In this document: piece after piece, positions 5,474 through 62,163 of the stretch
Layout: each line of letters begins with the position of its first letter
Position numbering within the stretch: position 1 is the first letter of the stretch
NCBI RefSeq assembly: GCF_009931435.1
Contig: NZ_CP043414.1
Direction: 5' to 3' (one strand)
Length of the DNA stretch: 64,000 nucleotides
Source: Escherichia coli
GTDB taxonomy: Bacteria > Pseudomonadota > Gammaproteobacteria > Enterobacterales > Enterobacteriaceae
The notes under the pieces: generated by a model
What the model saw: the letters and a program-made list of their open reading frames with translations, nothing else
What the model was told of the DNA's origin: nothing
Database searches by the model: none
Program-made: the position numbers and the translations under genes

Positions 5474-6022
5474 TTACCACTCCCAGACTTTCGACGGTGT
5501 AACCACCGCAGGAAGTGGGATATCCCACTCTTCAACGGGGAGTTTTTCCACCAACTGACAATCATGCGCATAACCCACCGGTTGCATTTGATAGCGCTGC
5601 CAGTTCTGTAAGGTCCGATCATAAAAACCACCGCCCATTCCCAGGCGCTGACCGTACTCATCAAAGGCGACCAGCGGTGTGATCAACACGTCTAATCGGG
5701 AAAGGGGTAGCACGTCACGCACATCCAGTTTTGGCTCATGGATCTTCAACCTGTTCATCACCAGTTCGCTTTGCGGATGGTAATTCAGGAACAGCAAATT
5801 ACCGGCACTAAAGGGATGCAAAACTGGAAGATATACGCGCTTACCGGCGCGCCAGAGTTGTTCTATGAGTGGCTGGGTGTCGAGTTCGCCATCAAAAGAG
5901 AGGAATACAGCGACCGTATGTGCCATCACCACCGGGGGATACGTCATCATCCGGGTAGCGGCTTGTTGACCCATTTCCTGCTGTTGTTCCGGCGTTAACG
6001 CACGACGACGTTGCCGAATCAT
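5474..6022 (-). CDS. ygfA: 5-formyltetrahydrofolate cyclo-ligase
   Basis: Track ORF 5474..6220; recognised protein begins MIRQRRRALTPEQQQEMGQQ at internal Met (182 aa); upstream part of track ORF overlaps the 6S RNA gene. Confidence 0.85.
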   Translation of the reverse strand: MIRQRRRALTPEQQQEMGQQAATRMMTYPPVVMAHTVAVFLSFDGELDTQPLIEQLWRAGKRVYLPVLHPFSAGNLLFLNYHPQSELVMNRLKIHEPKLDVRDVLPLSRLDVLITPLVAFDEYGQRLGMGGGFYDRTLQNWQRYQMQPVGYAHDCQLVEKLPVEEWDIPLPAVVTPSKVWEW

Positions 6023-30866: not shown

Positions 30867-31300
30867 CAGTGTTTCTCCTTTCGCCCGCCAGAGTAAAAAG
30901 CAACCGTTTACGTTCATGAAACTGTTTAAACACATGCTCGTGGAGTGCCAGTTTTTGCAAGGAAGGGGAGTTAGAGACAGGAATTGCGGAGGCAATCACA
31001 TAATCGTGATTAAACTACGAAAATGAGAAGAGAACCAGACAGTGGAATTATCTGCAATTTTCTCATATTGATATTTTATTAATCATTCTGGCATGTAGCT
31101 CTCTCGCATTTAATCAAGTTTATCTGGATAGCTCTCTTTTGGACCTTGATGTTGAAATAATGAAAGCGGCACAGATTGAGGGGTAATAATTTGAACTTAG
31201 TCACAAACTTATAATTAAAAAGTCATTCTACCTAATATATGCCCGTTTATTGCATCGCGAACTTTGAGAAGACATAACTCATTAAATGAAAGGGATGCAA

Positions 31301-43074: not shown

Positions 43075-46000
43075 TTACACCTCCACGCGGCCCAGCAGAT
43101 AATGATGATGCTGGTGGACATGGCTAATGATGCGGCACATATCGTTCAGCTCCGGTGGTACGTTGTTGAACTGACCTTCGCTGTCGATGTTTAACACCCA
43201 GCTTTGGTTATTCAGACGTACTCGTACCCGGCAATCTTCCACAAGGAAGCCTGGGTTGCTGCTGTTATCAAAGTCTTGCGACAGGCTGAAGACGGTGATT
43301 TTGTCTTTGTACGGTTTACCGTTCCACGGACAGAACTGAGCACAGTTGCCGCATTCGTTACAGTAAGCGTCGAGGTGCAGCGTCTGGAAACGGTTCTGGA
43401 AGCCAGGGACCGCAATGGATACGTTGGCGCGGTTCGGGCAGACATCCACACACTTGCTGCAAACGTAGTTACATTCAAGGCAGCGAGCGGCTTCCTGGGC
43501 GACAAACGCGTCACGATCGTCGCTATCCACCAGGGTGATAGAGATATCGCCTTTGCGTTGATAGATTTCCGCCGGATTGACGTTGTTCCAGTATTTATCG
43601 TTCTGGTGGGAACGGATATTTTCCCGACTAAGGATGGCATCGGTAGCCCGACGCGCAGTTCCGACAGCAGCGACAATGGAGGATGGTCCGCGCTGTACGT
43701 CGCCGATCATAAAGACGTCAGTCAGACGAGTTTCGCCATTATGGTCGACGTCTGGCCAGCCATTTTTGTCCAGCGGCACGCCCATCGCATTCAGGGCTTC
43801 AGTATCCTGCTGTTCGCCAATGGCGGTGATCAGGCTGTCTACATGCAGTGTTACTGTTTCGTTGGTTTCAACCGGACGGCGACGACCTTTCTCATCAGGT
43901 TCGCCAAGCGACATAACGCGCAAGGTTAAGGTGCCATCAGCATCGAAACGTTCCGGATTATTCAGGAAACGGAACTCCACGCCGTCGTGCAACGCTTCTT
44001 CATACTCTTCGCGCCATGCGGGCATCTCTTGCAGTGAACGACGATAAACGACCGTTGCTTTTTCTACGCCTGGAACGCGTAACGCCGCACGAGCGCAGTC
44101 CATTGCGGTGTTACCCGCCCCGACAACGACCACATGCTTGCCCAGCTTGAGCGTAGTGCCTTTGTTGTATTCACGCAGGAAGGGGAGTGATTTCCACACA
44201 TTTTGGTTGTCGCCCGCCAATTTCACACCGCTATTTTTATCAGTGCCGGTGGCAATCAGAACATAGTGGAAGCCCTGATTTTTTAACTGTTCAACGGTCA
44301 GATCGGGTGAGCAGCCATACTCAAATTTCACGCCGTGAGCGGCAACAAAATCGATATCGTGCTGAATTAACTCTGCAGGAATACGGAACTGAGGAATGAT
44401 ATTTTTCACCACGCCGCCCGCATTGGCTTCGCGTTCAAACAGCGTAACCGGATGGCCCGCTCTGGCAAGGAAGTAACCTGCTGCCAGACCCGCCGGACCT
44501 GCACCAATCACGGCAACCGGATGGCGTGAACCAGAACCGGCTGGTTTGTGCCAGCGTTGCTTATATTCATCCCAACCTTTTTCCAGCGCGACTTTTTTCA
44601 GTTCGCGGATATTCAGCGCACTGTCGTAATCCAGGCGGGTACAGTTGTATTGGCACTGGTGATCGCAAATATGACCGGTAATGGCGGGCAGGGCGTTGCG
44701 TTGGTAGATGAGTTCCAGTGCGTCGGCATAGCGGTGTTCGCCAAGCAGACGGATGTATTCCGGAATATCCTGTTTAATGGCGCAAGCAGTAACGCACGGT
44801 GCAACGTAGCAGTCGGTCAGCGGCAGGTCTTCTGCCACTTCAATACGCTCTTCTGGCTTCCAGTGTTTCTGCGTGTATTCCATGGTTAACGCGTCTGCTG
44901 CCAGTTTGTTCAGTCGTTCGACGTCAACATGGTCAAGCCCCCAGGCGTCGGAGCCTTCCAGCTCGCGCATGCAGGCACTTAAGCGCAGATAGCCGCCAGG
45001 TTTCAGCAGGTCGGTTGCCATAGTAATAGGGCGAATACCAGTATCAAAAATATCGCGGATAGTCAGCTGACTGGCACCACCGGAATAAGAAATGGGCAGT
45101 TTGCCGTCAAAGGCGCGAGAGAGAACTGCTGCAACATTGATGGAGAGCGGGAACAGCGCACGGCCTGACATATACATCTCTTCACCAGGCAGTGCACCTT
45201 TGTTATTAATGGTGCCGAGGGTATTGGTCAGTTTGACGCCAAAGCCGAGTGATTTTTCTTTTGCCAGTACCATCAGGCGTTCCAGCATTTCCAGCGCTTG
45301 CGTCAGCTTGAGGTCGTGATCAAATGACTCTTCTTTTAAGCCTATGTAACCGAAACCGCAGACATCGAGGATCTCACGAACACGCGCGTACCCCAGTAAG
45401 GTCGGGTTGAGTTTCACAAAGGTATTGAGCCCTTTTTCTTCCAGCATGTAGCGGCAAATGGCTTCGATTTCATGCGGAGGACAGCCGTGCATCGTGGAGA
45501 GGGTAACGCCTTGTACCATGCTGGTGGGGATGCGTGCCGGTAAGGCCTGCAAGCATTCGCGTTTTTCCTGTAAGCCGTGGCGGGCTAAAAATGCGTCATC
45601 CTGGAGTAATTTATTCAGCGTATCGCGATATTGAGCGAATTTCGGATGGTCAGATGCGTCCATCATATTATCGATGAACTGTTGCATCGGCGGTTGCTTA
45701 ATACCTTCGAGGTTGTAACCGACGCTCATATTAAAGATGAACGATTTACCGGAATCAGAAGGCTGGAACATCGCTTCGAGAAGGTGCAGGGCAAACCAGG
45801 CTTTGAGGTATTCATCCCAGGCTTTAAGCAGGGTAAATTCGGTGGACCATTCGGTGTTAAAGCACTCGTCTTCGGCATCAATACAGGGCTTTTCCAGCTC
45901 CAGGCGGTCAAGAATTTGGACGGTTTTTAGTTCGATGAAGCGTCCGCCAGTCAGCCAGGATGTGACAATATTTTGCGCGAGCTGCGTGTGCGGACCAGCG

Positions 46001-46173
46001 GCAGGGCCGACGGGAGTGGCACAGGTTTCACCGAAGACGCTAACAGTTTTACCTTTTACGGGTGAGTAAAACTGTTGCTCGGGAATACCAAAGATTGAGC
46101 GTTGTTGTTGGTATTCATCAAATATGCGCGTCAAAAGTTCCTCAAACGGAATGGGACGCATAATATCCCCCAT
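43075..46173 (-). CDS. ygfK: Large Fe-S / FAD-NAD(P) oxidoreductase (historically annotated putative selenate reductase subunit YgfK)
   Basis: Track ORF 1032 aa; GAGPAG dinucleotide motifs and C-terminal Cys clusters (CxxCxxCxxxCP). Confidence 0.88.
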   Translation of the reverse strand: MGDIMRPIPFEELLTRIFDEYQQQRSIFGIPEQQFYSPVKGKTVSVFGETCATPVGPAAGPHTQLAQNIVTSWLTGGRFIELKTVQILDRLELEKPCIDAEDECFNTEWSTEFTLLKAWDEYLKAWFALHLLEAMFQPSDSGKSFIFNMSVGYNLEGIKQPPMQQFIDNMMDASDHPKFAQYRDTLNKLLQDDAFLARHGLQEKRECLQALPARIPTSMVQGVTLSTMHGCPPHEIEAICRYMLEEKGLNTFVKLNPTLLGYARVREILDVCGFGYIGLKEESFDHDLKLTQALEMLERLMVLAKEKSLGFGVKLTNTLGTINNKGALPGEEMYMSGRALFPLSINVAAVLSRAFDGKLPISYSGGASQLTIRDIFDTGIRPITMATDLLKPGGYLRLSACMRELEGSDAWGLDHVDVERLNKLAADALTMEYTQKHWKPEERIEVAEDLPLTDCYVAPCVTACAIKQDIPEYIRLLGEHRYADALELIYQRNALPAITGHICDHQCQYNCTRLDYDSALNIRELKKVALEKGWDEYKQRWHKPAGSGSRHPVAVIGAGPAGLAAGYFLARAGHPVTLFEREANAGGVVKNIIPQFRIPAELIQHDIDFVAAHGVKFEYGCSPDLTVEQLKNQGFHYVLIATGTDKNSGVKLAGDNQNVWKSLPFLREYNKGTTLKLGKHVVVVGAGNTAMDCARAALRVPGVEKATVVYRRSLQEMPAWREEYEEALHDGVEFRFLNNPERFDADGTLTLRVMSLGEPDEKGRRRPVETNETVTLHVDSLITAIGEQQDTEALNAMGVPLDKNGWPDVDHNGETRLTDVFMIGDVQRGPSSIVAAVGTARRATDAILSRENIRSHQNDKYWNNVNPAEIYQRKGDISITLVDSDDRDAFVAQEAARCLECNYVCSKCVDVCPNRANVSIAVPGFQNRFQTLHLDAYCNECGNCAQFCPWNGKPYKDKITVFSLSQDFDNSSNPGFLVEDCRVRVRLNNQSWVLNIDSEGQFNNVPPELNDMCRIISHVHQHHHYLLGRVEV

Positions 46174-46254
46174 AACCCTCTCCTTAGCTTATACAGATAT
46201 CATTGAGTGACCGGTGTTGAGAAATCCGGTGGTTTAGGGGGATAGAGCAACAAT

Positions 46255-46271
46255 CGCACCACTCTTGCCAG
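46255..46271 (-). promoter_or_regulatory. Candidate sigma54-like promoter upstream of ygfK: minus strand CTGGCAAGAGTGGTGCG (GG-N10-GC)
   Basis: Read directly; ~85 nt upstream of ygfK ATG; -12 element GTGC deviates from TTGC. Confidence 0.35.
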
Positions 46272-46494
46272 GTTTGGCGGGAAATATAAAAAAATGTGAG
46301 GCGGCTCGAAACTTAAGGGCTTTTTGTGAATGAACTCACAGGTGCCAAATGAGAATTAAAATCACTCCTGGGAATTATTATTACCAGCCCATTTATCACT
46401 TTTTCTCTTTTCTCAAAATCAGTGATTCCTTATCATAATGATAAAGCAGGCTGGATGGTTTAAATATTTGAACGCAAACGTTTAACTACGTTTT

Positions 46495-47175: not shown

Positions 47176-47946
47176 GTGAAAAGTATAGTTGACCCATCGG
47201 CATTATTCATTGATTTAGGCGCGCAGAAACGCCCCACTGTGATTTCTGTTGTTGGGGCTGGGGGGAAAACCAGCTTGCTTTTTTGGCTGGCAGAACTGCT
47301 CCAGGCTAGCGGCAGGCGTGTGTTAATCACTACGACGACACATATGTTTATGCCAACGTCTCACTGGCCCGTGGTTTTCTGTCGTGATCCCGCCATGCTT
47401 CCTCATACGTCTCTTACATCCCCCATTTCATTTTGTTTTCACAGCTGGAAAGCGAACCAGGGAAAAGTGCAGGGATTTATGCCAGAAGCGATTGATGCAC
47501 TGGTGCAACGACCAGAGTGTGACGTAATTCTCATTGAGGCAGATGGCTCGCGTGGAATGCCGTTAAAAGCGCCTGATGAGCACGAACCTTGCATACCCAA
47601 AAGCAGTTGCTGCGTGATTGCTGTGATGGGAGGACATATTTTGGGTGCGAAAGTGAGCACAGAAAATGTCCATCGCTGGTCGCAGTTTGCTGATATTACC
47701 GGGTTAACACCTGATGCAACCTTGCAACTGAGCGATCTCGTTGCGCTGGTTCGCCACCCTCAGGGCGCATTTAAAAACGTACCGCAAGGTTGTCGGCGAG
47801 TCTGGTTCATTAACCGTTTTTCTCAATGTGAGAATGCGATTGCGCAAAGCGAGCTCCTTCAACCGCTGCAACAACACGACGTAGAGGCAATCTGGCTGGG
47901 CGATATACAAGAACATCCTGCAATCGCGCGCAGATTTGTGAATTAG
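47176..47946 (+). CDS. yqeC: Selenium-dependent hydroxylase accessory protein YqeC family (GTG start)
   Basis: Track ORF 256 aa; P-loop-like VVGAGGKTS. Confidence 0.85.
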   Translation: MKSIVDPSALFIDLGAQKRPTVISVVGAGGKTSLLFWLAELLQASGRRVLITTTTHMFMPTSHWPVVFCRDPAMLPHTSLTSPISFCFHSWKANQGKVQGFMPEAIDALVQRPECDVILIEADGSRGMPLKAPDEHEPCIPKSSCCVIAVMGGHILGAKVSTENVHRWSQFADITGLTPDATLQLSDLVALVRHPQGAFKNVPQGCRRVWFINRFSQCENAIAQSELLQPLQQHDVEAIWLGDIQEHPAIARRFVN

Positions 47947-47993
47947 CGGCCCGGGTATTCCGGGTTACTGAAAGGATATCCATTGAGGTTGGT

Positions 47994-49619
47994 ATGAATA
48001 TTTTCACAGAGGCTGCAAAACTTGAAGAGCAAAATTGTCCGTTTGCGATGGCGCAAATTGTTGATAGCCGAGGCTCGACTCCCCGCCATTCTGCACAAAT
48101 GTTAGTGCGCGCCGATGGTTCTATCGTCGGTACAATTGGTGGTGGAATGGTTGAGCGGAAGGTGATTGAAGAGTCGCTTCAGGCATTGCAGGAACGTAAG
48201 CCGCGATTATTCCATGGACGTATGGCTCGTAACGGTGTGGATGCTGTCGGGTCAGATTGTGGAGGTGCAATGTCCGTGTTTATCAGCGTCCATGGTATGC
48301 GTCCTCGTCTGGTGTTGATTGGCGCGGGGCATGTCAACCGGGCGATAGCCCAGAGTGCGGCGCTATTAGGATTTGATATTGCCGTTGCCGATATTTATCG
48401 CGAAAGCCTTAATCCTGAATTATTCCCACCATCAACCACGCTTCTCCATGCTGAGTCGTTTGGTGCGGCAGTGGAAGCACTGGATATTCGCCCTGATAAT
48501 TTTGTCCTGATTGCCACGAATAATCAGGATCGTGAAGCCCTCGACAAACTCATTGAACAGCCCATTGCATGGCTGGGGTTGCTGGCAAGTCGCCGCAAGG
48601 TTCAGCTTTTCCTACGTCAATTGCGTGAGAAAGGCGTGGCTGAAGAACATATTGCCCGTTTACATGCGCCCGTTGGTTACAACATAGGTGCGGAAACGCC
48701 GCAGGAGATCGCCATCAGCGTGCTGGCAGAAATATTACAGGTGAAAAATAACGCGCCGGGTGGGCTGATGATGAAACCTTCTCATCCTTCCGGACACCAG
48801 CTGGTGGTGATTCGCGGTGCGGGGGATATCGCCAGTGGTGTGGCGCTACGTCTGTATCATGCGGGTTTTAAAGTGATCATGCTGGAAGTGGAAAAGCCGA
48901 CGGTGATTCGTTGTACCGTGGCGTTTGCCCAGGCTGTGTTCGACGGCGAAATGACGGTCGAAGGTGTTACTGCCCGTCTGGCAACCAGCTCTGCTGAGGC
49001 GATGAAACTTACCGAACGCGGATTCATCCCTGTGATGGTAGATCCCGCCTGTTCATTGCTTGATGAACTGAAACCGCTTTGCGTGGTGGACGCTATTCTG
49101 GCGAAACAGAATTTGGGTACGCGGGCAGATATGGCACCAGTAACAATCGCGCTTGGGCCGGGCTTTACTGCTGGGAAGGATTGCCATGCGGTAATTGAAA
49201 CAAATCGCGGGCACTGGCTCGGTCAGGTGATTTACTCTGGTTGTGCGCAGGAGAATACCGGTGTTCCCGGCAATATTATGGGGCATACCACCCGACGGGT
49301 GATCCGTGCTCCTGCTGCAGGCATTATGCGATCCAACGTGAAATTAGGCGATCTGGTGAAAGAGGGCGATGTGATTGCCTGGATTGGTGAGCATGAAATT
49401 AAAGCACCATTGACGGGGATGGTGCGTGGCTTGTTGAACGACGGACTGGCGGTGGTCGGTGGTTTTAAAATTGGTGATATCGATCCACGTGGTGAAACGG
49501 CTGATTTCACCAGCGTTTCTGATAAAGCCCGGGCAATTGGCGGCGGCGTACTTGAGGCGTTAATGATGTTGATGCATCAGGGCGTTAAAGCGACAAAAGA
49601 AGTGCTGGAAGTGGCTTAA
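47994..49619 (+). CDS. yqeB: Selenium-dependent molybdenum hydroxylase system protein YqeB (XdhC/CoxI-family)
   Basis: Track ORF 541 aa. Confidence 0.85.
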   Translation: MNIFTEAAKLEEQNCPFAMAQIVDSRGSTPRHSAQMLVRADGSIVGTIGGGMVERKVIEESLQALQERKPRLFHGRMARNGVDAVGSDCGGAMSVFISVHGMRPRLVLIGAGHVNRAIAQSAALLGFDIAVADIYRESLNPELFPPSTTLLHAESFGAAVEALDIRPDNFVLIATNNQDREALDKLIEQPIAWLGLLASRRKVQLFLRQLREKGVAEEHIARLHAPVGYNIGAETPQEIAISVLAEILQVKNNAPGGLMMKPSHPSGHQLVVIRGAGDIASGVALRLYHAGFKVIMLEVEKPTVIRCTVAFAQAVFDGEMTVEGVTARLATSSAEAMKLTERGFIPVMVDPACSLLDELKPLCVVDAILAKQNLGTRADMAPVTIALGPGFTAGKDCHAVIETNRGHWLGQVIYSGCAQENTGVPGNIMGHTTRRVIRAPAAGIMRSNVKLGDLVKEGDVIAWIGEHEIKAPLTGMVRGLLNDGLAVVGGFKIGDIDPRGETADFTSVSDKARAIGGGVLEALMMLMHQGVKATKEVLEVA

Positions 49620-52077: not shown

Positions 52078-53289
52078 TTATTCGGTTGCCAGCCAGCTTA
52101 ACGGGATTGCAGCGTACATCGCGGCACAGGTCACCAGGTGAGATTTCCAGGTTTTTTCGTTAGGTGCATGCGCTTCAGGTTCTTTACCCGGGCCAAAGCC
52201 GATCACCGGAATGCCGTGACGACCCATGATAGATACGCCGTTAGTTGAGAAGGTCCACTTATCAACAACCGGCGCTTTGCCAAACAGACCTTCGTAGGCA
52301 TTCACCAGTGCTTTAACAGTGAAGTGATCTTCTTCCACTTTCCAGGTCGGGAAGTAGCATTCGGTTGGGTAAACCAGGCCAGTCCAGGACGGACGGTCGT
52401 AGTTGTACATAGAAACAACCGCGTTAGCTTTCTGTACCGCAGGCAGGGCGCGGATTTCGTCCAGCGCGCCTTCCCAGGTTTCGCCCCAGGTCAGACGACG
52501 GTCGATTGAAACTGCGCAGCTATCTGCTACAGCGCAACGGCTTGGGGATGTGAAGAAAATTTCAGAAACGGTGAGGGTGCCTTTGCCGAGGAATTCATCA
52601 TAGCCCAGGCGCTGGGAGAGTTCTTGTAATTCGCCAAGAATCGGACCCATTTTGAAAATGGCGTTGTCACCGCGTTCTGGTGCAGAACCGTGGCAGCTAA
52701 CACCCTGAACATCAATGCGAATTTCCATACGACCGCGTTGACCACGGTATACCTGGCAATCAGTCGGTTCAGTACTGACCACAAATTCCGGGCGAATGCC
52801 GGATTGTTCAATAATGTACTGCCAGCACAGACCGTCGCAGTCTTCTTCCTGCACCGTACCGGTAACCAGCAGGGTATATTCATCTTCCAGACCGAGGTCT
52901 TTAATGATTTTACCGGCATAAACCATAGAGGCCATGCCGCCTTCCTGGTCGGAAGTACCGCGACCACCGATCAGTTCATCAGTTTCCATGCCTTCGTACG
53001 GATCGAAGTCCCAGTTTTTGATGTTGCCAATGCCGACGGTATCAATATGAGCATCCATTGCCACCAGACGCGGGCCGTGACCGATATAACCGAGAACGTT
53101 GCCCATCGGGTCGATTTCAACTTTATCGAAGCCGACTTTTTCCATCTCTTCTTTAATACGATGCACTACGCGTTTTTCGTCGCAGCTTTCGCTGGGGATC
53201 GCAACCATGTCGCGCAGGAAGCGAGTCATGTCTGCCTGGTAATCTTTTGCTTTTTCAAGAATCAGTTTGAATGGAATATTCTTAGCCAT
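52078..53289 (-). CDS. ygeY: M20-family peptidase / amidohydrolase YgeY
   Basis: Track ORF 403 aa. Confidence 0.88.
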
Positions 53290-54601: not shown

Positions 54602-55792
54602 TTATTTCACGCGTTCTTGCGCTTCTTTCAGCAGTTGTTCGAGCAGTGCGCCTGGTTTGGAATATTTACGGGAAAGGATCATTGCTGCGATGATGTATGG
54701 CTTCCAGCTGGCTTCTTTGTAGGTCGCGATACGGTATTTTTCGAATACGCCTTCAGTGACTTCACCTTCTTTGCAGGATACGCCGCTGATATCTGCTGGC
54801 AGGCAGTGCATGTACAGGGCTTCGCCATCACGGGTCAGTTCCATCATCTCTTCAGTGCAATGCCAGTCTTTGTGTTGCGCGTTCTGTGCCAGACACTGTT
54901 TTTCCAGTGCTTTTAAGCCTTCGTGATCGTTCGCACGCAGCAGTTCAGTACGCTCTTCCATCACTTTGTAAGGTGCCCATGACTTCGGATAAACGATGTC
55001 TGCGTCTTTGAAGGCTTCTTCCATGCTGGTGACCTGACGGAAGCTACCGCCAGAGGCTTTAGCATTATTTTTAGCTACTTCAACTACATCCGGGATCAAA
55101 TCGTAGCCTTCCGGATGGGCCAGGGTGACATCCATACCGAAGCGGGTCATCAGGCCGATAATGCCTTGCGGTACAGAGAGCGGTTTGCCGTAGCTTGGCG
55201 AGTATGCCCAAGTCATGGCGATTTTTTTACCTTTCAGGTTTTCGAGCGAACCAAAGTGTTCACGCAACCATGCCAGGTCAGCCATTGACTGAGTCGGATG
55301 GTCGATATCGCATTGTAGGTTCACTAAAGCCGGACGCTGTGGAAGCACGCCCTGCTTGTAGCCGTCATCAAGCGCAGCGCCAACTTCACGCATATAGGCG
55401 TTACCTGCGCCCAGATACATATCGTCACGAATACCAATAGCGTCGGCGCAGAAGGAGATCATATTGGCGGTTTCACGTACGGTTTCGCCGTGAGCGATTT
55501 GTGATTTGCCTTCGTCGAGATCTTGCTGTGCAAGGCCGAGCAGGTTAAGCGCGGAAGCATAAGAGAAGCGGGTACGGGTGGAGTTGTCGCGGAATACGGA
55601 AATACCTAATCCACTATTAAAGACTTTGGTTGAGATGTTTTCAGCACGCAGTGCTTTTAATGCTGCGGCAACGTCCAGTACTTGTTTCAGTTCATCAGGC
55701 GTCTGTTCCCACGTTAACAAAAAATCTTTCTCGTGAAGGTGAGAGGTCAGCGAATTGATATCCTTAATCAGCTCATTAACAGTTTTCATCAT
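54602..55792 (-). CDS. ygeW: Knotted carbamoyltransferase YgeW (ATCase/OTCase fold)
   Basis: Track ORF 396 aa; carbamoyl-phosphate-binding STRTR motif. Confidence 0.88.
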   Translation of the reverse strand: MMKTVNELIKDINSLTSHLHEKDFLLTWEQTPDELKQVLDVAAALKALRAENISTKVFNSGLGISVFRDNSTRTRFSYASALNLLGLAQQDLDEGKSQIAHGETVRETANMISFCADAIGIRDDMYLGAGNAYMREVGAALDDGYKQGVLPQRPALVNLQCDIDHPTQSMADLAWLREHFGSLENLKGKKIAMTWAYSPSYGKPLSVPQGIIGLMTRFGMDVTLAHPEGYDLIPDVVEVAKNNAKASGGSFRQVTSMEEAFKDADIVYPKSWAPYKVMEERTELLRANDHEGLKALEKQCLAQNAQHKDWHCTEEMMELTRDGEALYMHCLPADISGVSCKEGEVTEGVFEKYRIATYKEASWKPYIIAAMILSRKYSKPGALLEQLLKEAQERVK

Positions 55793-55882
55793 AAAGTCCC
55801 GGTAGTGGAATGACAGGCAAAGTGGTTTATTTCACTGTGACTTGCCAAAGTGATTGGTGTTTTCACAGCTATACCAGGGACT

Positions 55883-55899
55883 AACAATAAGTGTGCCAG
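55883..55899 (-). promoter_or_regulatory. Candidate sigma54-like promoter upstream of ygeW: minus strand CTGGCACACTTATTGTT (perfect TGGCAC, -12 TTGT)
   Basis: Read directly; ~95 nt upstream of ygeW ATG; -12 GC replaced by GT. Confidence 0.3.
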
Positions 55900-56267
55900 A
55901 ATTATCCACACGGCTATAAAAGACTAATTTGACGGGTAATGTGTGGTGTAGATCACAAATTGATGCCAGCTTCCGGTTGTGTGTAAAATACGAAAACGTT
56001 TGGCTTTTTTTATTGCGTTGTTTATTTGCTGCTAAGTATCAGAAATAAGATAAAGGGGCAGGCTATCCCTCGTCAGTTTGATAAACTCACCGCTGTAATT
56101 CTCATATTGATATAGAAATGTGATATCTCTTCCATAATTTCATTAGAAAGTGATAAAAACCTTATGTTTTTATCAAAGCCAATTTCGCCTGAGTTAATAT
56201 CATGATGATCTGTGAACCATCAACGTCTTCAATGATCGACTTTTAAGTAAGTCTGGAAGGTAAAGCT

Positions 56268-58046
56268 ATGGAGCTTGCTACTACGCAGTCAGTATTGATG
56301 CAAATTCAACCGACAATTCAGCGTTTTGCCAGAATGCTTGCCAGCGTTTTGCAGCTTGAGGTTGAGATCGTTGATGAAAACTTGTGTCGCGTCGCCGGAA
56401 CGGGCGCGTATGGGAAGTTTCTTGGCCGCCAGTTGAGCGGCAACTCACGCCTGCTCCGCCACGTCCTGGAAACGAAAACTGAAAAAGTTGTGACACAGTC
56501 TCGCTTCGATCCCCTTTGCGAAGGTTGCGATAATAAAGATAATTGTCGCGAAAAAGCATTTCTGGGTACGCCTGTCATTTTACAGGATCGTTGTGTTGGG
56601 GTGATAAGTTTGATTGCAGTTACCCACGAGCAACAAGAACATATCAGTGATAATTTACGCGAGTTTTCTGATTACGTTCGCCATATATCCACCATTTTTG
56701 TTTCGAAACTTCTGGAGGATCAGGGACCAGGAGATAACATCAGTAAAATATTCGCGACCATGATCGATAATATGGATCAGGGCGTATTAGTTGTTGATGA
56801 CGATAATCGGGTTCAGTTTGTTAATCAGACGGCCTTAAAAACACTCGGTGTTGTGCAAAATAATATTATTGGGAAACCTATCCGTTTCAGACCATTAACA
56901 TTTGAGAGTAATTTTACCCACGGACATATGCAACATATTGTTTCGTGGGACGATAAAAGTGAATTAATCATTGGCCAATTGCATAACATTCAGGGCAGAC
57001 AATTATTTTTAATGGCGTTTCACCAATCGCATACCAGTTTTTCTGTAGCAAATGCACCTGATGAACCGCATATTGAACAATTGGTTGGCGAGTGCCGTGT
57101 TATGCGGCAATTAAAACGACTCATTAGCCGTATTGCGCCCAGCCCATCCAGCGTTATGGTGGTTGGTGAAAGCGGCACGGGTAAAGAAGTCGTCGCGCGT
57201 GCAATCCATAAGTTGAGTGGAAGACGAAATAAACCCTTTATTGCTATCAACTGTGCCGCGATTCCTGAACAACTTCTGGAGAGCGAACTATTCGGTTATG
57301 TTAAAGGCGCATTTACTGGCGCTTCAGCCAACGGTAAAACAGGGTTGATTCAGGCGGCGAATACGGGCACGCTGTTTCTCGATGAAATTGGTGATATGCC
57401 ATTAATGTTGCAGGCTAAATTACTGCGCGCTATTGAGGCGCGTGAAATACTGCCGATTGGTGCCAGTAGCCCAATTCAGGTCGACATCCGAATCATTTCT
57501 GCAACTAACCAGAATTTGGCCCAGTTCATTGCCGAAGGTAAATTCCGCGAAGATCTCTTCTACCGACTCAATGTTATCCCGATCACTCTTCCACCGCTGC
57601 GTGAACGTCAGGAAGATATTGAACTGCTGGTACATTACTTTTTACATCTGCATACCCGTCGTCTGGGATCGGTTTATCCTGGCATTGCTCCCGATGTCGT
57701 CGAGATATTGCGTAAGCATCGTTGGCCCGGAAACCTGCGCGAGTTAAGCAATTTAATGGAATATCTGGTTAACGTTGTTCCTTCAGGTGAAGTTATCGAC
57801 AGCACGCTATTGCCTCCAAATTTGCTGAATAATGGCACAACGGAGCAAAGTGATGTAACAGAGGTCAGCGAGGCGCACTTGGCACTCGATGATGCGGGCG
57901 GCACGGCGCTGGAGGAGATGGAAAAGCAAATGATCCGCGAGGCGCTTTCACGTCATAGCAGCAAGAAGCAAGTTGCTGATGAACTGGGTATCGGCATTGC
58001 TACGCTCTATCGCAAGATAAAGAAATATGAGTTGTTAAACGCATAA
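56268..58046 (+). CDS. ygeV: Sigma54-dependent transcriptional activator (bacterial enhancer-binding protein) with N-terminal sensor region, AAA+ domain and C-terminal HTH
   Basis: Track ORF 592 aa; Walker A GESGTGKE, GAFTGA sigma54-contact motif, C-terminal HTH. Confidence 0.9.
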   Translation: MELATTQSVLMQIQPTIQRFARMLASVLQLEVEIVDENLCRVAGTGAYGKFLGRQLSGNSRLLRHVLETKTEKVVTQSRFDPLCEGCDNKDNCREKAFLGTPVILQDRCVGVISLIAVTHEQQEHISDNLREFSDYVRHISTIFVSKLLEDQGPGDNISKIFATMIDNMDQGVLVVDDDNRVQFVNQTALKTLGVVQNNIIGKPIRFRPLTFESNFTHGHMQHIVSWDDKSELIIGQLHNIQGRQLFLMAFHQSHTSFSVANAPDEPHIEQLVGECRVMRQLKRLISRIAPSPSSVMVVGESGTGKEVVARAIHKLSGRRNKPFIAINCAAIPEQLLESELFGYVKGAFTGASANGKTGLIQAANTGTLFLDEIGDMPLMLQAKLLRAIEAREILPIGASSPIQVDIRIISATNQNLAQFIAEGKFREDLFYRLNVIPITLPPLRERQEDIELLVHYFLHLHTRRLGSVYPGIAPDVVEILRKHRWPGNLRELSNLMEYLVNVVPSGEVIDSTLLPPNLLNNGTTEQSDVTEVSEAHLALDDAGGTALEEMEKQMIREALSRHSSKKQVADELGIGIATLYRKIKKYELLNA

Positions 58047-58085: not shown

Positions 58086-58565
58086 TTACTTCGTTTTCTC
58101 GCAATCCAGAACTGTATTTACAATCATCTGATACCCCGTGCAGCGACAAAGATTTCCCGCCAGGCCGCGACGAATCTCCGTAATAGTTAATGGCTTCTCG
58201 CGTGGTTTCGCCAGCATTGCCGTGGTAGCCATAATCAGGCCAGGCGTACAAAACCCGCACTGCACCGCGCCGGATTTCGCATAAGCTTGCTGGACATGAG
58301 AAAGTTTTCCGCCTTTCGCTTCACCTTCCAGCGTGCGGATTTCTTTGCCTTCAGCCCAGGCGGCAAGGTATAAGCAACTGTCTATCGCAGTACCGTCGAC
58401 CAGCACCGTACAGGCACCACATTCACCCACGCAGCAACCTTGCTTGACGCTTAGCAGCCCTTGTTCGCGGAGTAATTCCGAGAGCGGCGTGCCTGGCGCG
58501 GCGTGAAGCTGAAAAGGTATCCCGTTAATGGTGCATGCGATGGTAATTGTTTCGCTGTGATTCAT
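58086..58565 (-). CDS. xdhC: Xanthine dehydrogenase Fe-S subunit (two 2Fe-2S clusters)
   Basis: Track ORF 159 aa; Cys motifs CxxGxCGxC and CGFC. Confidence 0.9.
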
Positions 58566-59440
58566 TGCAATTTTCCCCCCGCCGCGGCGACGGCTTCGCT
58601 AATCACTTTTTTAGTCATCGTCTGGATGAGATGCAGACGAAACTCTTTGCTGGCCCGCCATGAAGAACGCGGGGCGACATCCTGCAGGACTGATTCGCTG
58701 ATGGCTTCCAGCGTTTGCAGGTTTAATGGCGCATTTTGTGCAGTTTGTTCGGCATGTTGGCAGCGAATCGGCGTTGGCGCGGCAACGCCAAATGCCAGGC
58801 GTAATTCGCTGAAATTGCCGTTATCCAGTCGGCAATGTGCGGCACAGCCAATCGTTGAAATATCCATCGCATCGCGCATGGCATATTTAAAATGGGCGCT
58901 GCCTGCGTGTTCTTTCGGCTGGGGCGGAAAATGAAAGGCGACAAGGATTTCGTCATGCTCAAGGGATACTTTGCCCGGTCCGGTGTGGAAGCCATTAATC
59001 GGGACGAAATGAACACCGCGCGGGGAGTGGATCTCCAGCTTCGCATCATAAATTAGCGTTGGCGTGGCAGAATCCGCGCTGGTGGCTCCATTGCAAATAT
59101 TTCCTCCGTAGGTAGCGACGTTACGGATCTGCGGTCCAGCAATGGACGAGGCCGCAGCACATAACGCCGGGAGATGACGTTGAGTTACAGGATCTTCAAT
59201 GAGCTGGGTAAATGTCGTTGCTGAGCCGATGCGTAGCGAGTCATCTTCCGCTAGCGTAATTCCACGAAGCTCCGTCAGATTGTGGATATCAACAATATGG
59301 CGATAACGGTCATTGTGATGGTGGAGCTGAATCAGTACGTCAGTGCCACCGGCGAGCAGTTTGGCCTGTGGGTTGTCAGCCAGCAGGTTTATTGCATCGG
59401 CAAGGGATGCTGCGCGATGGTAAGAAGCAAAATCAAACAT
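58562..59440 (-). CDS. xdhB: Xanthine dehydrogenase FAD-binding subunit
   Basis: Track ORF 292 aa; 4-nt overlap with xdhC. Confidence 0.9.
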
Positions 59441-59450
59441 GATGTTATCC

Positions 59451-61709
59451 TCAAATCAATCCTGCCAGATGGAACTCTTCATATAACCGTTTTGGCGTCA
59501 GCGGCAGTGTATTGATTGCAACACCGGTAGCCATTTTCACCGCGTTACGAATAGCAGCGGCAACAGGAATTATTGGTGGCTCACCCAGTGACTTATGTCC
59601 GTATGCGGATTGCGGCTCATTGATTTCGACGAACGCGCTTTCCAGTTGTGGCAGATCTGGCATGGTCGGCATTTTGTAATCCAGCAGATTGGGGTTACGG
59701 ACCACGCCGCTTTTCGCATCGATGATCATTTCTTCAAATAGCGCCCAGCCAATGCCCATCCCCATTCCGCCGTGTACCTGACCTTCTGCCAGCAACGGAT
59801 TAAGAATATGACCCGAATCATGAACGTTGAGGATGCGGTTGATGGTGACTTTGCACAGCGCAATATCGACCGTCAGATCAACAAAGGTACAGCCAAATGC
59901 TGGTGGGTTAGTGGTGGTTTTGATGGAGCTTTCGGCAGAGAGCTGCCCGCCGCGTTCAGGGTGGTAGAAAGCGTCCATCGCCAAATCTTTTAACGACAAT
60001 AACGATTCTTCCGGTCGTTCAACCAGCACGATATGGCCTTTTATTAGGGTCAGATTCATCGCTGACTGATGTAGCATGACAGCGGCGTGAGCGATGATTT
60101 TTTCTTTTAATAACAGTGCCGCACTGCGCAATGCAGGCGCGGCAACATAGCTCTGGCGTGAGGCAAATGCGCCGGGATCGAACGGCGTAACGTCGGTATC
60201 TTGTGTTGAAATAACGCGAACGTCGCTGACCGGAACCCCTACGGTTTCTGCCACCATTTGCGAGAACACGGTGTCGGCACCCTGGCCGATTTCCGTCGCG
60301 CCGCTTTGCACATTGATGGTTCCATCCTGATTCATCAGAAGGCGCGCGCCGGCTATTTCTACGCCGACAGGCCAGGTGTTAGAGGTGTAGCTAAAACAGG
60401 CGACGCCAACGCCGCGGCGTAAATTGCCTTGCTGGTTCTGGCATTCTGCACGGCGTTTTTCCCATTCAAAGATTTTCCGGCCTTTTTCAAGACACTCCGG
60501 CAACCCTGCGCTGTAAATACGTTTGCCCGTGAGCGGATTAGCATCTCCTTCGCGGGCGGCGTTGCGTAAACGAATTTCAATAGGATCAATATTTAACGCT
60601 GTCGCGGCGTCATCAAGCATTGACTCAACGGCAAATACGACTTGTGGCGCGCCATAACCGCGCATCGCTCCAGCCGAGGGGAGGTTGGTATAAAAGGTCT
60701 TTGAACTGTAAGCGTAGGCACAACGAGGATAAAGGTAAGCGACTTTATTCCCGCCCGCAGAAGCGATGGAGTGCCCGTGAGATGCATAAGCGCCTGTGTT
60801 AGACAGAACATCCAGACTATAGCCTTTCAACGTTCCGTCTCGGTTTACGCCCATTTGCCCGTCAATAGTAAAAGCGTGGCGGGTACGGGTTGCGAGGAAA
60901 CACTCTTCACGGCTAAGGGAAACTTTCACCGGAATGCCGCCGAGCTTGCTGGTCAGAAAAGCCGCCATGGGCTCTTCCAGCACATCCTGTTTATTACCAA
61001 AACCGCCACCGACAAACGGTTTGATGACTCGTACGCATGACCAGGGAATACCCAGCGCCTGACCAACCACGCGGCGAACAATGTGCGGGATCTGGGTGCT
61101 GGAAACGATGGTAATTCGAGAGTCATCCTCCATCCATGCCAGCGATGTCACGCTTTCCATATGACAATGTTGAATAACGGGAGTCTGATAGTGCCCCTGC
61201 ACCTGGTAATCGGCGGCATCGATTGTTTGTTGGACATTACCCGTCGACATCGAGCTTTGTTTTAGTAAATTGCCGCCGTTATGGATTGGTGCAGCGTCAT
61301 CTGCCAGCGCCGCTTCTGGCGTGGTGATAACGGGTAATTCTTGCCACTCAATGCTGACCAATTGCGCCGCTTTTTCTGCCGTGAGTTCATCACGGGCCAC
61401 GACGATGGCAACGGCGTCACCATGATGACGAACATGGCGAGTTAGCAGTGCGCGATCGGCGGTATCGCGCTTGTTTTCGTCAAGTGTCCAGGCATGCCCA
61501 GCTGTAGCGAATGGGATATCAGGTACATCTTCCCAGGTAAAAATTGCCAGTACGCCTGGTAAACTTCTGGCTTGTTCATCATTAATACTTACGGCATAAC
61601 CATGTGCGATAGGGCTACGTACATATTTCGCGTAACACATGCCCGCCATAACATAATCGTCAGTATATCGTGCCCGCCCAGTGACCTTAGCAATGGCATC
61701 GACGCGCAT
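59451..61709 (-). CDS. xdhA: Xanthine dehydrogenase molybdenum-binding subunit
   Basis: Track ORF 59451..61748; recognised start MRVDAIAKVTGRARYTDDY at internal ATG; 752 aa. Confidence 0.9.
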   Translation of the reverse strand: MRVDAIAKVTGRARYTDDYVMAGMCYAKYVRSPIAHGYAVSINDEQARSLPGVLAIFTWEDVPDIPFATAGHAWTLDENKRDTADRALLTRHVRHHGDAVAIVVARDELTAEKAAQLVSIEWQELPVITTPEAALADDAAPIHNGGNLLKQSSMSTGNVQQTIDAADYQVQGHYQTPVIQHCHMESVTSLAWMEDDSRITIVSSTQIPHIVRRVVGQALGIPWSCVRVIKPFVGGGFGNKQDVLEEPMAAFLTSKLGGIPVKVSLSREECFLATRTRHAFTIDGQMGVNRDGTLKGYSLDVLSNTGAYASHGHSIASAGGNKVAYLYPRCAYAYSSKTFYTNLPSAGAMRGYGAPQVVFAVESMLDDAATALNIDPIEIRLRNAAREGDANPLTGKRIYSAGLPECLEKGRKIFEWEKRRAECQNQQGNLRRGVGVACFSYTSNTWPVGVEIAGARLLMNQDGTINVQSGATEIGQGADTVFSQMVAETVGVPVSDVRVISTQDTDVTPFDPGAFASRQSYVAAPALRSAALLLKEKIIAHAAVMLHQSAMNLTLIKGHIVLVERPEESLLSLKDLAMDAFYHPERGGQLSAESSIKTTTNPPAFGCTFVDLTVDIALCKVTINRILNVHDSGHILNPLLAEGQVHGGMGMGIGWALFEEMIIDAKSGVVRNPNLLDYKMPTMPDLPQLESAFVEINEPQSAYGHKSLGEPPIIPVAAAIRNAVKMATGVAINTLPLTPKRLYEEFHLAGLI

Positions 61710-61802
61710 GCATGATTCACCCGTAGCGGTTGCTTCCCGCGCTTCCATAGAAATCCCCTCGATTTGAACATTTGGTTCTTATGGCAAAGATTTAGTCTAA
61801 GC

Positions 61803-61819
61803 AGGCAAGATTTACGCCA
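61803..61819 (-). promoter_or_regulatory. Candidate sigma54 promoter for xdhABC: minus strand CTGGCGTAAATCTTGCC (TGGC-N8-TTGC spacing exact)
   Basis: Read directly: reverse complement of ggcaagatttacgccag; ~90 nt upstream of xdhA ATG; sigma54 EBP gene ygeV adjacent. Confidence 0.5.
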
Positions 61820-62163
61820 GAAACGACGATAAACGTTAGGGGAGGAAGGAAGTGTGATGACGTTAAAAAAATACAGATACGATACGAAACAGGACCCTGA
61901 ATAGGGACAGTGATACGTATCAATATGAGTGGCGATAAAATCAATGTGATAAATCAGGATTATTACGCATCAGGATGGGAAATAGGGTAAAAGAGTCAGG
62001 AACTTCGATACCACCACAGCAAATATTTTGCTTATGATACTTCCCTTTGCCAAATGAAATTAATCTCTTTCTCAATTACCTCGTTTTTCCAGAAGCGAGA
62101 GATTGGGTATCCAGAGGCTGGCTGCTATGATATGGCGTCTTGTTTTTTAAGCGAGGAAAGATT

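Follow-up and report, generated by a model that had tools for sequence, protein, structure and literature searches.

The closest described counterpart of the E. coli purine/urate cluster is the regulon of DioR, a sigma-54 activator named in a computational reconstruction of sigma-54 regulons in Clostridiales (Nie et al. 2019, BMC Genomics 20:565). The predicted DioR regulon comprises dpaL-pyrC, ygeW-ygfK-ssnA-ygeY, xdhABC, yqeB, and, as predicted in C. difficile, dioR itself. Its predicted enhancer motif is TTATCA-N3-TGATAA, and the predicted sites in the supplement to that study include ATTTATCATAATGATAAGG (C. botulinum ygeW) and AATTCTCGTATTGATAAAA (C. difficile dpaL). In E. coli, the ygeW-ygfT cluster constitutes a gut-bacterial anaerobic pathway of urate/purine degradation that is being engineered against hyperuricaemia, and its pathway-specific regulation has so far been described only as a putative YgeV regulon. 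That name comes from an iModulon study, which reports a YgeV iModulon and cites lower ygfT expression in a ygeV mutant. The literature also reports that ygeV is strongly induced by indole, that ygeW is among the candidate PurR-regulon genes of one computational study, and that the ygeV/ygeW spacer contains a native Crp site, in connection with glucose repression (bioRxiv 2025.05.19.654654). No published YgeV DNA site or YgeV binding experiment was found in the literature searched.

We analyzed a 64,000-nucleotide stretch of an E. coli genome (the window), which contains the purine/urate cluster in reversed orientation relative to K-12. According to the RefSeq annotation, ygeW, the first gene of the regulated operon, occupies 54602-55789 on the minus strand (ATG at 55789) and is divergent from ygeV (56268-58046, plus strand), which encodes a sigma-54 enhancer-binding protein; the two genes are separated by a spacer of 475 bp. 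The other genes considered here are xdhCBA (58086-61748, minus strand), ygfK (approximately 43075-46173, minus strand), and yqeC/yqeB (47176-49619, plus strand). The spacer of the present strain is unusual (55750-56310), since only 12 of 5,181 matching genomes carry it at ≥99% identity and most are at 95 to 97%. Within E. coli, the ygeW-proximal half of the spacer is far more variable than the ygeV-proximal half. Allele counts were taken over 5,426 complete E. coli genomes, and nine E. coli genomes were aligned separately. The one non-E. coli orthologous spacer compared is that of an enterobacterium recovered from metagenomes (contig L092, extended with L093 to L098) by means of a wobble-degenerate DNA pattern excluding the E. 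coli codon. We refer to this organism as species X. Its YgeW and YgeV proteins are 93% and 87.5% identical to those of E. coli, and only 43% of 4-fold degenerate sites are identical between the two.

An earlier note on this DNA had reported a minus-strand TGGCAC-N5-TTGT about 95 nt before ygeW, and the element is indeed found at 55883-55899 (CTGGCACACTTATTGTT; reverse complement, CTGGCAC-ACTTA-TTGTT), with its -12 end 95 nt from the ygeW ATG. Its -24 element, TGGCAC, and its spacing conform fully to the consensus; the -12 element reads TTGT instead of TTGC. The identical 17-mer appears in Table 1 of Bonocora 2015 as the intergenic ChIP-seq site OS30 for ygeW (FAT, 3; PSSM, 9.8), and genomic SELEX placed an RpoN peak in the ygeV/ygeW spacer at 53 to 55% (Shimada et al. 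2021); sequence and position here are the same as those published. The same table lists xdhA, ygfK, and ygfT sites as well as an intragenic one in yqeC, which drives yqeB, as that study established by mutation. We found all five of these sequences unchanged in the window. The cognate ATPase is present as the divergent ygeV product, which carries a Sigma54_activat domain (E value, 2e-70) and HTH_8. The ygeW sigma-54 element is a genuine site, experimentally bound and already published, and our sole addition is that the block 55881-55904 is kept in species X, TTGT variant included. No sigma-54-like element directed at ygeV was seen in the spacer by eye or in a crude scan.

The TGATA/TATCA theme that the earlier note had seen upstream of ygeW, xdhA, and ygfK is well founded, since these pentamers are enriched relative to shuffled sequences in all three regions. 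The ygeV/ygeW spacer contains 7 against 1.4 expected (none of 1,000 shuffles reached 7), the region upstream of xdhA contains 5 against 1.2 (P = 0.007), and the region upstream of ygfK contains 4 against 0.7 (P = 0.006). The TGATA-containing repeats placed around 56108-56127 are present there as TGATATAGAAATGTGATATC. The element that recurs among the promoters, however, is AATTCTCATATTGATAT (56097-56115), only the right edge of which falls within that interval. This site, which we call S1 (AATTCTCATATTGATATAG; TTCTCA-N3-TGATAT), is situated roughly 230 bp before the predicted ygeW start and fits a 15-bp dyad TTMTCA-N3-TGAKAA with A/T flanks; AATTCTCATATTGATAT is almost the same as the C. difficile dpaL site.

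We scanned the 64-kb window with a matrix made from 20 clostridial DioR sites only. Five matches of at least 14 bits were found, compared with 0.5 expected from composition-preserving shuffles (maximum, 3), and the top five matches lie at ygfT, ygeW, yqeB, ygfK, and xdhA, each no more than 250 bp away from one of the five sigma-54 sites mapped in the cluster. S1 scored 18.7 bits, the second highest in the window. As a specificity control, matches of at least 14 bits had a density of 1.97 per 10 kb around YgeV-like genes with purine-gene neighbors versus 0.11 per 10 kb across 717 kb around other enhancer-binding-protein genes. S1 is unchanged in the nine aligned E. coli genomes and identical at 16 of 16 positions in species X, and the 38-mer around it occurs in 5,176 genomes. 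The 12-mer CTCATATTGATA is found at 56101 within S1 and recurs in the upstream regions of ygfT (31062) and xdhA (61918); a further copy at 53040 was dismissed as coincidental because it lies within ygeY and encodes an H-I-D-T metal-site motif. Besides S1, the spacer blocks kept in species X were the sigma-54 promoter, the CRP half-sites, AAACGTTTGGCTTTTT, the lone half-site TTGATAAA (56078-56085; 8 of 8 positions, with diverged flanks), a 23-bp block directly after S1, and TGTTTTTATCAAAGC, which contains the right arm of the inverted repeat discussed below. YgeV is the most plausible binder of the recurrent motif, and the likely activator site for ygeW is S1.

The remaining matches vary in their placement relative to the promoter. 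The best match in the window (21.7 bits) lies in the uacT/ygfT spacer at 31058-31076 and precedes the sigma-54 site of ygfT (31238-31254) by about 170 bp. On the minus strand at 30934-30951 we observed CTGGCACTCCACGAGCAT, a GG-N10-GC element that precedes the start codon of uacT (30866) by approximately 70 nt and is about 115 bp away from the enhancer site on the ygfT side. This element, absent from the published ChIP-seq rows examined, could be a second sigma-54 promoter that uses the same enhancer site. Upstream of ygfK, where TTTATCATTATGATAAGG is found, the site TTATCA-TAA-TGATAA (46428-46446; 16.2 bits) is kept in species X, and the sigma-54 site is at 46246-46262. Also conserved upstream of ygfK are an outward pair TGATTT-TAA-TTCTCA (46350-46364) and a lone half-site TTTTGAGAAAA (46408-46418); outward half-site pairs may be general in these E. 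coli enhancers.

Two sites are found upstream of xdhA, one at 61936-61954 (14.0 bits) and one with its core at 61917-61931 that contains the 12-mer (combined span, 61915-61954). Their centres are 21 bp apart, they lie 95 to 130 bp upstream of the -24 element of the sigma-54 site (61804-61820), and both are kept in species X. Between these sites and the promoter there is a 23-bp block TTTTTTAACGTCATCACACTTCC (61848-61870) that is identical in species X. A 12-bp palindrome, TGATACGTATCA, which also lies upstream of xdhA and is FNR-like too, is not kept in species X and was set aside. The remaining match, the perfect palindrome TTCTCA-ATG-TGAGAA (47818-47836; 17.5 bits), falls in the coding region of yqeC and is located some 225 bp downstream of the published intragenic promoter (47577-47593) from which yqeB is transcribed. 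Species X retains both half-sites and has a different spacer codon, although this conservation is confounded by the coding sequence. The palindrome is a possible enhancer that would act from a position downstream of the promoter.

The inverted repeat TGATAAAAAC-cttat-GTTTTTATCA, which the earlier note had put forward as a perfect 10-bp-arm repeat, is present at 56151-56175. It is the strongest dyad in the ygeV/ygeW spacer and the only AT-rich repeat of such size in the window, the others being GC-rich hairpins located where genes end. When the 475-bp spacer was dinucleotide-shuffled, inverted repeats with arms of at least 9 bp arose in 3.3% of the shuffles and those with arms of at least 10 bp in 0.85%. 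Its perfection proved to be restricted to 10 of the 5,426 complete genomes (counted as a 38-mer with C at 56160), whereas at least 4,953 genomes carry TGATAAAAAT, with T at 56160 and arms of 9 bp, as do all eight of the other aligned genomes at that position. The 10-bp perfection is thus a rare allele of the small lineage to which the present strain belongs.

Nor is the repeat the shared motif. Its half-sites face outward (TGATAA-N13-TTATCA) and are 19 bp apart, in the opposite order to the family motif TTATCA-N3-TGATAA, in which they are 9 bp apart, and the outward arrangement has no copy at xdhA, ygfK, ygfT, or yqeB. When the E. coli arms were extended to full 19-mers, each scored less than 1.5 bits with the DioR matrix; the partner halves are degenerate, and the implied centre-to-centre spacing is 28 bp compared with 15 to 22 bp in the clostridial arrays examined. 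Each arm is a consensus half-site whose outer side bears the AAG spacer of clostridial sites such as ATTTATCAAAGTGATAAGT: AAAG precedes TGATAA in the left arm (56151-56160), and AAG follows TTATCA in the right arm with its flank (56165-56179; TGTTTTTATCAAAGC).

Comparison with species X separates what is kept of the repeat from what is not. S1-type sites and the outer 7 bp of both arms are conserved in the orthologous intergenic regions, but the 10-bp arms and their spacing are not. The left arm retains TGATAAA shifted by 1 bp relative to S1, the arms are 1 bp closer, and the inner 3 bp differ (AAGAG versus AAAAC in E. coli for the inner bases of the left arm). The right arm is the better conserved of the two, with TGTTTTTATCAAAGC identical at 15 of 15 positions, and in species X its 19-mer TTTTATCAAAGCAATATTT scores 15.8 with the DioR matrix; the distance from the right-arm site to S1 is 71 bp in both species. 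Because the inner bases and the spacing have changed, the repeat persists as two half-sites rather than as a stem of 10 bp. The best reading of it is a pair of conserved, outward-facing YgeV-type half-sites near the ygeV promoter, perhaps for autoregulation. Because their order and 13-nt gap are at odds with a single dimer bound to the family motif and their 28-bp spacing differs from that of the clostridial arrays, we read the arms as auxiliary or low-affinity predicted YgeV contacts.

Among the alternatives, the repeat or its right arm could be part of a ygeV sigma-70 promoter or the operator of another regulator of ygeV, such as a mediator of the indole response or an AT-preferring nucleoid protein, with the likeness to YgeV sites being coincidental. 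The arms lie 93 to 117 bp upstream of the ygeV ATG, and the only -35/-10 pair there that is common to both species is a weak one, TTATCA-19-TAATAT (TAGTAT in species X), so that the right arm could double as a -35 element and its conservation could reflect promoter function alone. The strong induction of ygeV by indole also favors this explanation, as does the location of the repeat on the far side of S1 from the ygeW promoter, since the repeat is then not needed for looping. We still think it rather unlikely, since the arms bear the clostridial AAG spacer in addition to TGATAA/TTATCA and both the score of the species X right arm and the pentamer enrichment argue against coincidence. IHF, Fis, Fur, and Nac were considered as binders of the repeat and rejected because their consensus sequences do not match it by eye, and we know of no other E. 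coli factor whose motif fits.

Alternatively, the repeat itself could be the main YgeV site, with one dimer across the palindrome serving both as ygeW enhancer and as ygeV operator. Although no dyad in the spacer is stronger and the repeat is made of family-motif half-site words with conserved outer arms, this explanation is very unlikely given the reversed order and wide separation of its half-sites, the S1-type sites found in place of any comparable dyad at the other four promoters, the rarity of the perfect arms, and the changed inner bases and spacing in species X. That the repeat is an RNA or DNA hairpin (for instance, a ygeV leader) or a functionless AT-rich chance palindrome is hardly credible: it folds at -8.1 kcal/mol (z = -3.4 versus shuffles) and arms of 9 bp or more do arise in shuffled spacers, but it has no Rfam match, its stem lacks G+C and is followed by no T run as a terminator would be, the species X changes fall on one arm only and leave, uncompensated, a 7-bp stem with a 10-nt loop, and identity at 15 of 15 right-arm positions, against 43% at neutral sites, excludes a lack of function for the right arm. 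A role in RNA is unlikely.

Several other elements of these control regions are conserved. A CRP site TGTGG-N6-TCACA lies at 55942-55957. Among E. coli genomes and in species X alike, its half-sites are conserved and its 6-nt spacer varies. Upstream of ygfK, a consensus CRP site TGTGA-GTTCAT-TCACA (46325-46340) likewise has its half-sites kept in species X with a different spacer, and it matches the reported glucose repression of the pathway. A PurR-like box ACGAAAACGTTTGGCT is found at 55990-56005 (55994-56009 is identical at 16 of 16 positions in species X), and a second, TTAAACGTTTGCGTTC, upstream of ygfK at 46470-46485 is kept in species X. Both resemble the PurR operator, ACGCAAACGTTTGCGT, and are candidate sites by that likeness. 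The block directly after S1 (56116-56138; AAATGTGATATCTCTTCCATAAT) is invariant in the nine E. coli genomes and identical at 22 of 23 positions in species X. Its left end equals AAATGTGA, a CRP consensus half; any role as the left half of a CRP-like site or within the ygeV promoter is a guess. Two further candidates were discarded: a perfect DnaA-box word (55902-55910) varies among E. coli strains, and a sigma-70-like pair TTGATG-18-TAAAAT (55960-55989) is not kept in species X.

YgeV contains PAS, Sigma54_activat, AAA_lid_14, and HTH_8 (Fis-type helix-turn-helix) domains in Pfam. A protein homologue search with YgeV returned only E. coli variants of at least 99% identity, and a contig scan with the whole protein was dominated by generic AAA+ patterns, with homologues at no more than 50% local and 39% full-length identity. 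Full-length homologues of 36 to 39% identity were found in Propionigenium, Sedimentibacter, Ruthenibacterium, and Clostridium MAGs, where they adjoin dpaL, ygeW, ygeY, xdh, and ssnA genes. At the Propionigenium, Sedimentibacter, and Ruthenibacterium loci, three high-scoring sites lie 100 to 290 bp upstream of a canonical sigma-54 promoter, beside dpaL/ygeW. Among the homologues found here and set beside YgeV, the recognition helix is shared by these distant proteins encoded beside purine genes, with one conservative change in two of them: LGIGIATLYRKI is common to YgeV and the homologues on L002, L004, and L012, while L006 has LGIGLATLYRKI and L003 has LGISIATLYRKI. The helix is identical in species X and in the homologues of the Propionigenium, Sedimentibacter, and Ruthenibacterium loci.

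L003 is from Citrobacter werkmanii, in which a YgeV-like gene (38% identity) is divergent from a dpaL-ygeY-like operon. The spacer of this locus contains a sigma-54 promoter CTGGTAAGCATTTTGCT, two adjacent TGATAA-type sites, one with a 4-nt spacer, and an inward repeat TTTATCA-N7-TGATAAA that lies approximately 35 to 60 bp upstream of the regulator's start codon (5698-5714 and 5818-5975 on L003).

Taken together, these observations make it probable, in our judgment, that the spacer serves ygeW and ygeV, which diverge from it, as a compound control region. Others have placed sigma-54 RNA polymerase at 55883-55899, on the -24/-12 element, and have located a CRP site in the spacer; every step beyond sigma-54 and CRP binding is one that we infer from sequence. 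YgeV would be the E. coli counterpart of clostridial DioR, and its dimers would bind TTMTCA-N3-TGAKAA sites, with S1 as the main site for ygeW. The conserved lone half-sites at 56078, 56151, and 56170 would probably add contacts that help hexamer assembly. The DNA would then loop, perhaps aided by a CRP bend at 55942-55957, and ATP hydrolysis by YgeV would open the ygeW promoter. With the same type of site at the xdhA, ygfK, yqeB, and ygfT sigma-54 promoters, YgeV would switch on the whole urate/purine cluster directly.

For the outward half-sites upstream of the ygeV ATG, the most likely role is the binding of YgeV at or near its own weak promoter, which we propose with less confidence. Such feedback is plausible because the arms adjoin the only conserved, if weak, -35/-10 pair, and autoregulation is also suggested by the membership of dioR in its own predicted regulon in C. 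difficile and by the position of the C. werkmanii repeat near the start of the regulator gene. A broader proposal is more tentative still, and we regard it as possible and not as the expected outcome: YgeV may directly run the whole cluster through DioR-type sites that were acquired from an anaerobe lineage along with the regulator and the enzymes, including an enhancer about 225 bp downstream of its promoter in yqeC, and the outward pair may be a feedback operator that sets YgeV levels.

The lasting result is that each of the five sigma-54 promoters in the E. coli cluster has been assigned a predicted DioR-type enhancer site, in a form open to testing. With a predicted 19-bp site at each promoter and CRP sites at two, regulation of the pathway becomes accessible to simple experiments, and the assignment also accounts for the relief of glucose repression upon replacement of the spacer. 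The idea of a shared motif was right in spirit and attached to the wrong element, the eye-catching perfect palindrome being a rare allele and not the motif itself.

NtrC at glnAp2 and NorR at norV represent the classical architectures of enhancer-binding proteins. The ygeW region resembles them in having dyad sites for a predicted Fis-type helix-turn-helix binder upstream of a -24/-12 promoter and several sites that would promote hexamer assembly, and, as in norR-norV, the activator gene is divergent. It differs in its half-site sequence, in the greater distance of S1 from the start (about -230), and in having a CRP site between enhancer and promoter, where no clear IHF site was seen by eye. 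Relative to the DioR regulon, which consists of predictions and not footprints, the E. coli promoters mostly have one full site plus lone half-sites, whereas clostridia have arrays of two or three full sites; one E. coli site lies downstream of its promoter, inside yqeC; and the outward-facing repeat is without counterpart in the published list. The two systems are otherwise alike in their gene set (dpaL, ygeW-ygfK-ssnA-ygeY, xdhABC, and yqeB), in the kind of sigma-54 activator, and in sharing the 15-bp core TTATCA/TTCTCA-N3-TGATAA/TGAGAA, located roughly 100 to 300 bp upstream of the promoter.
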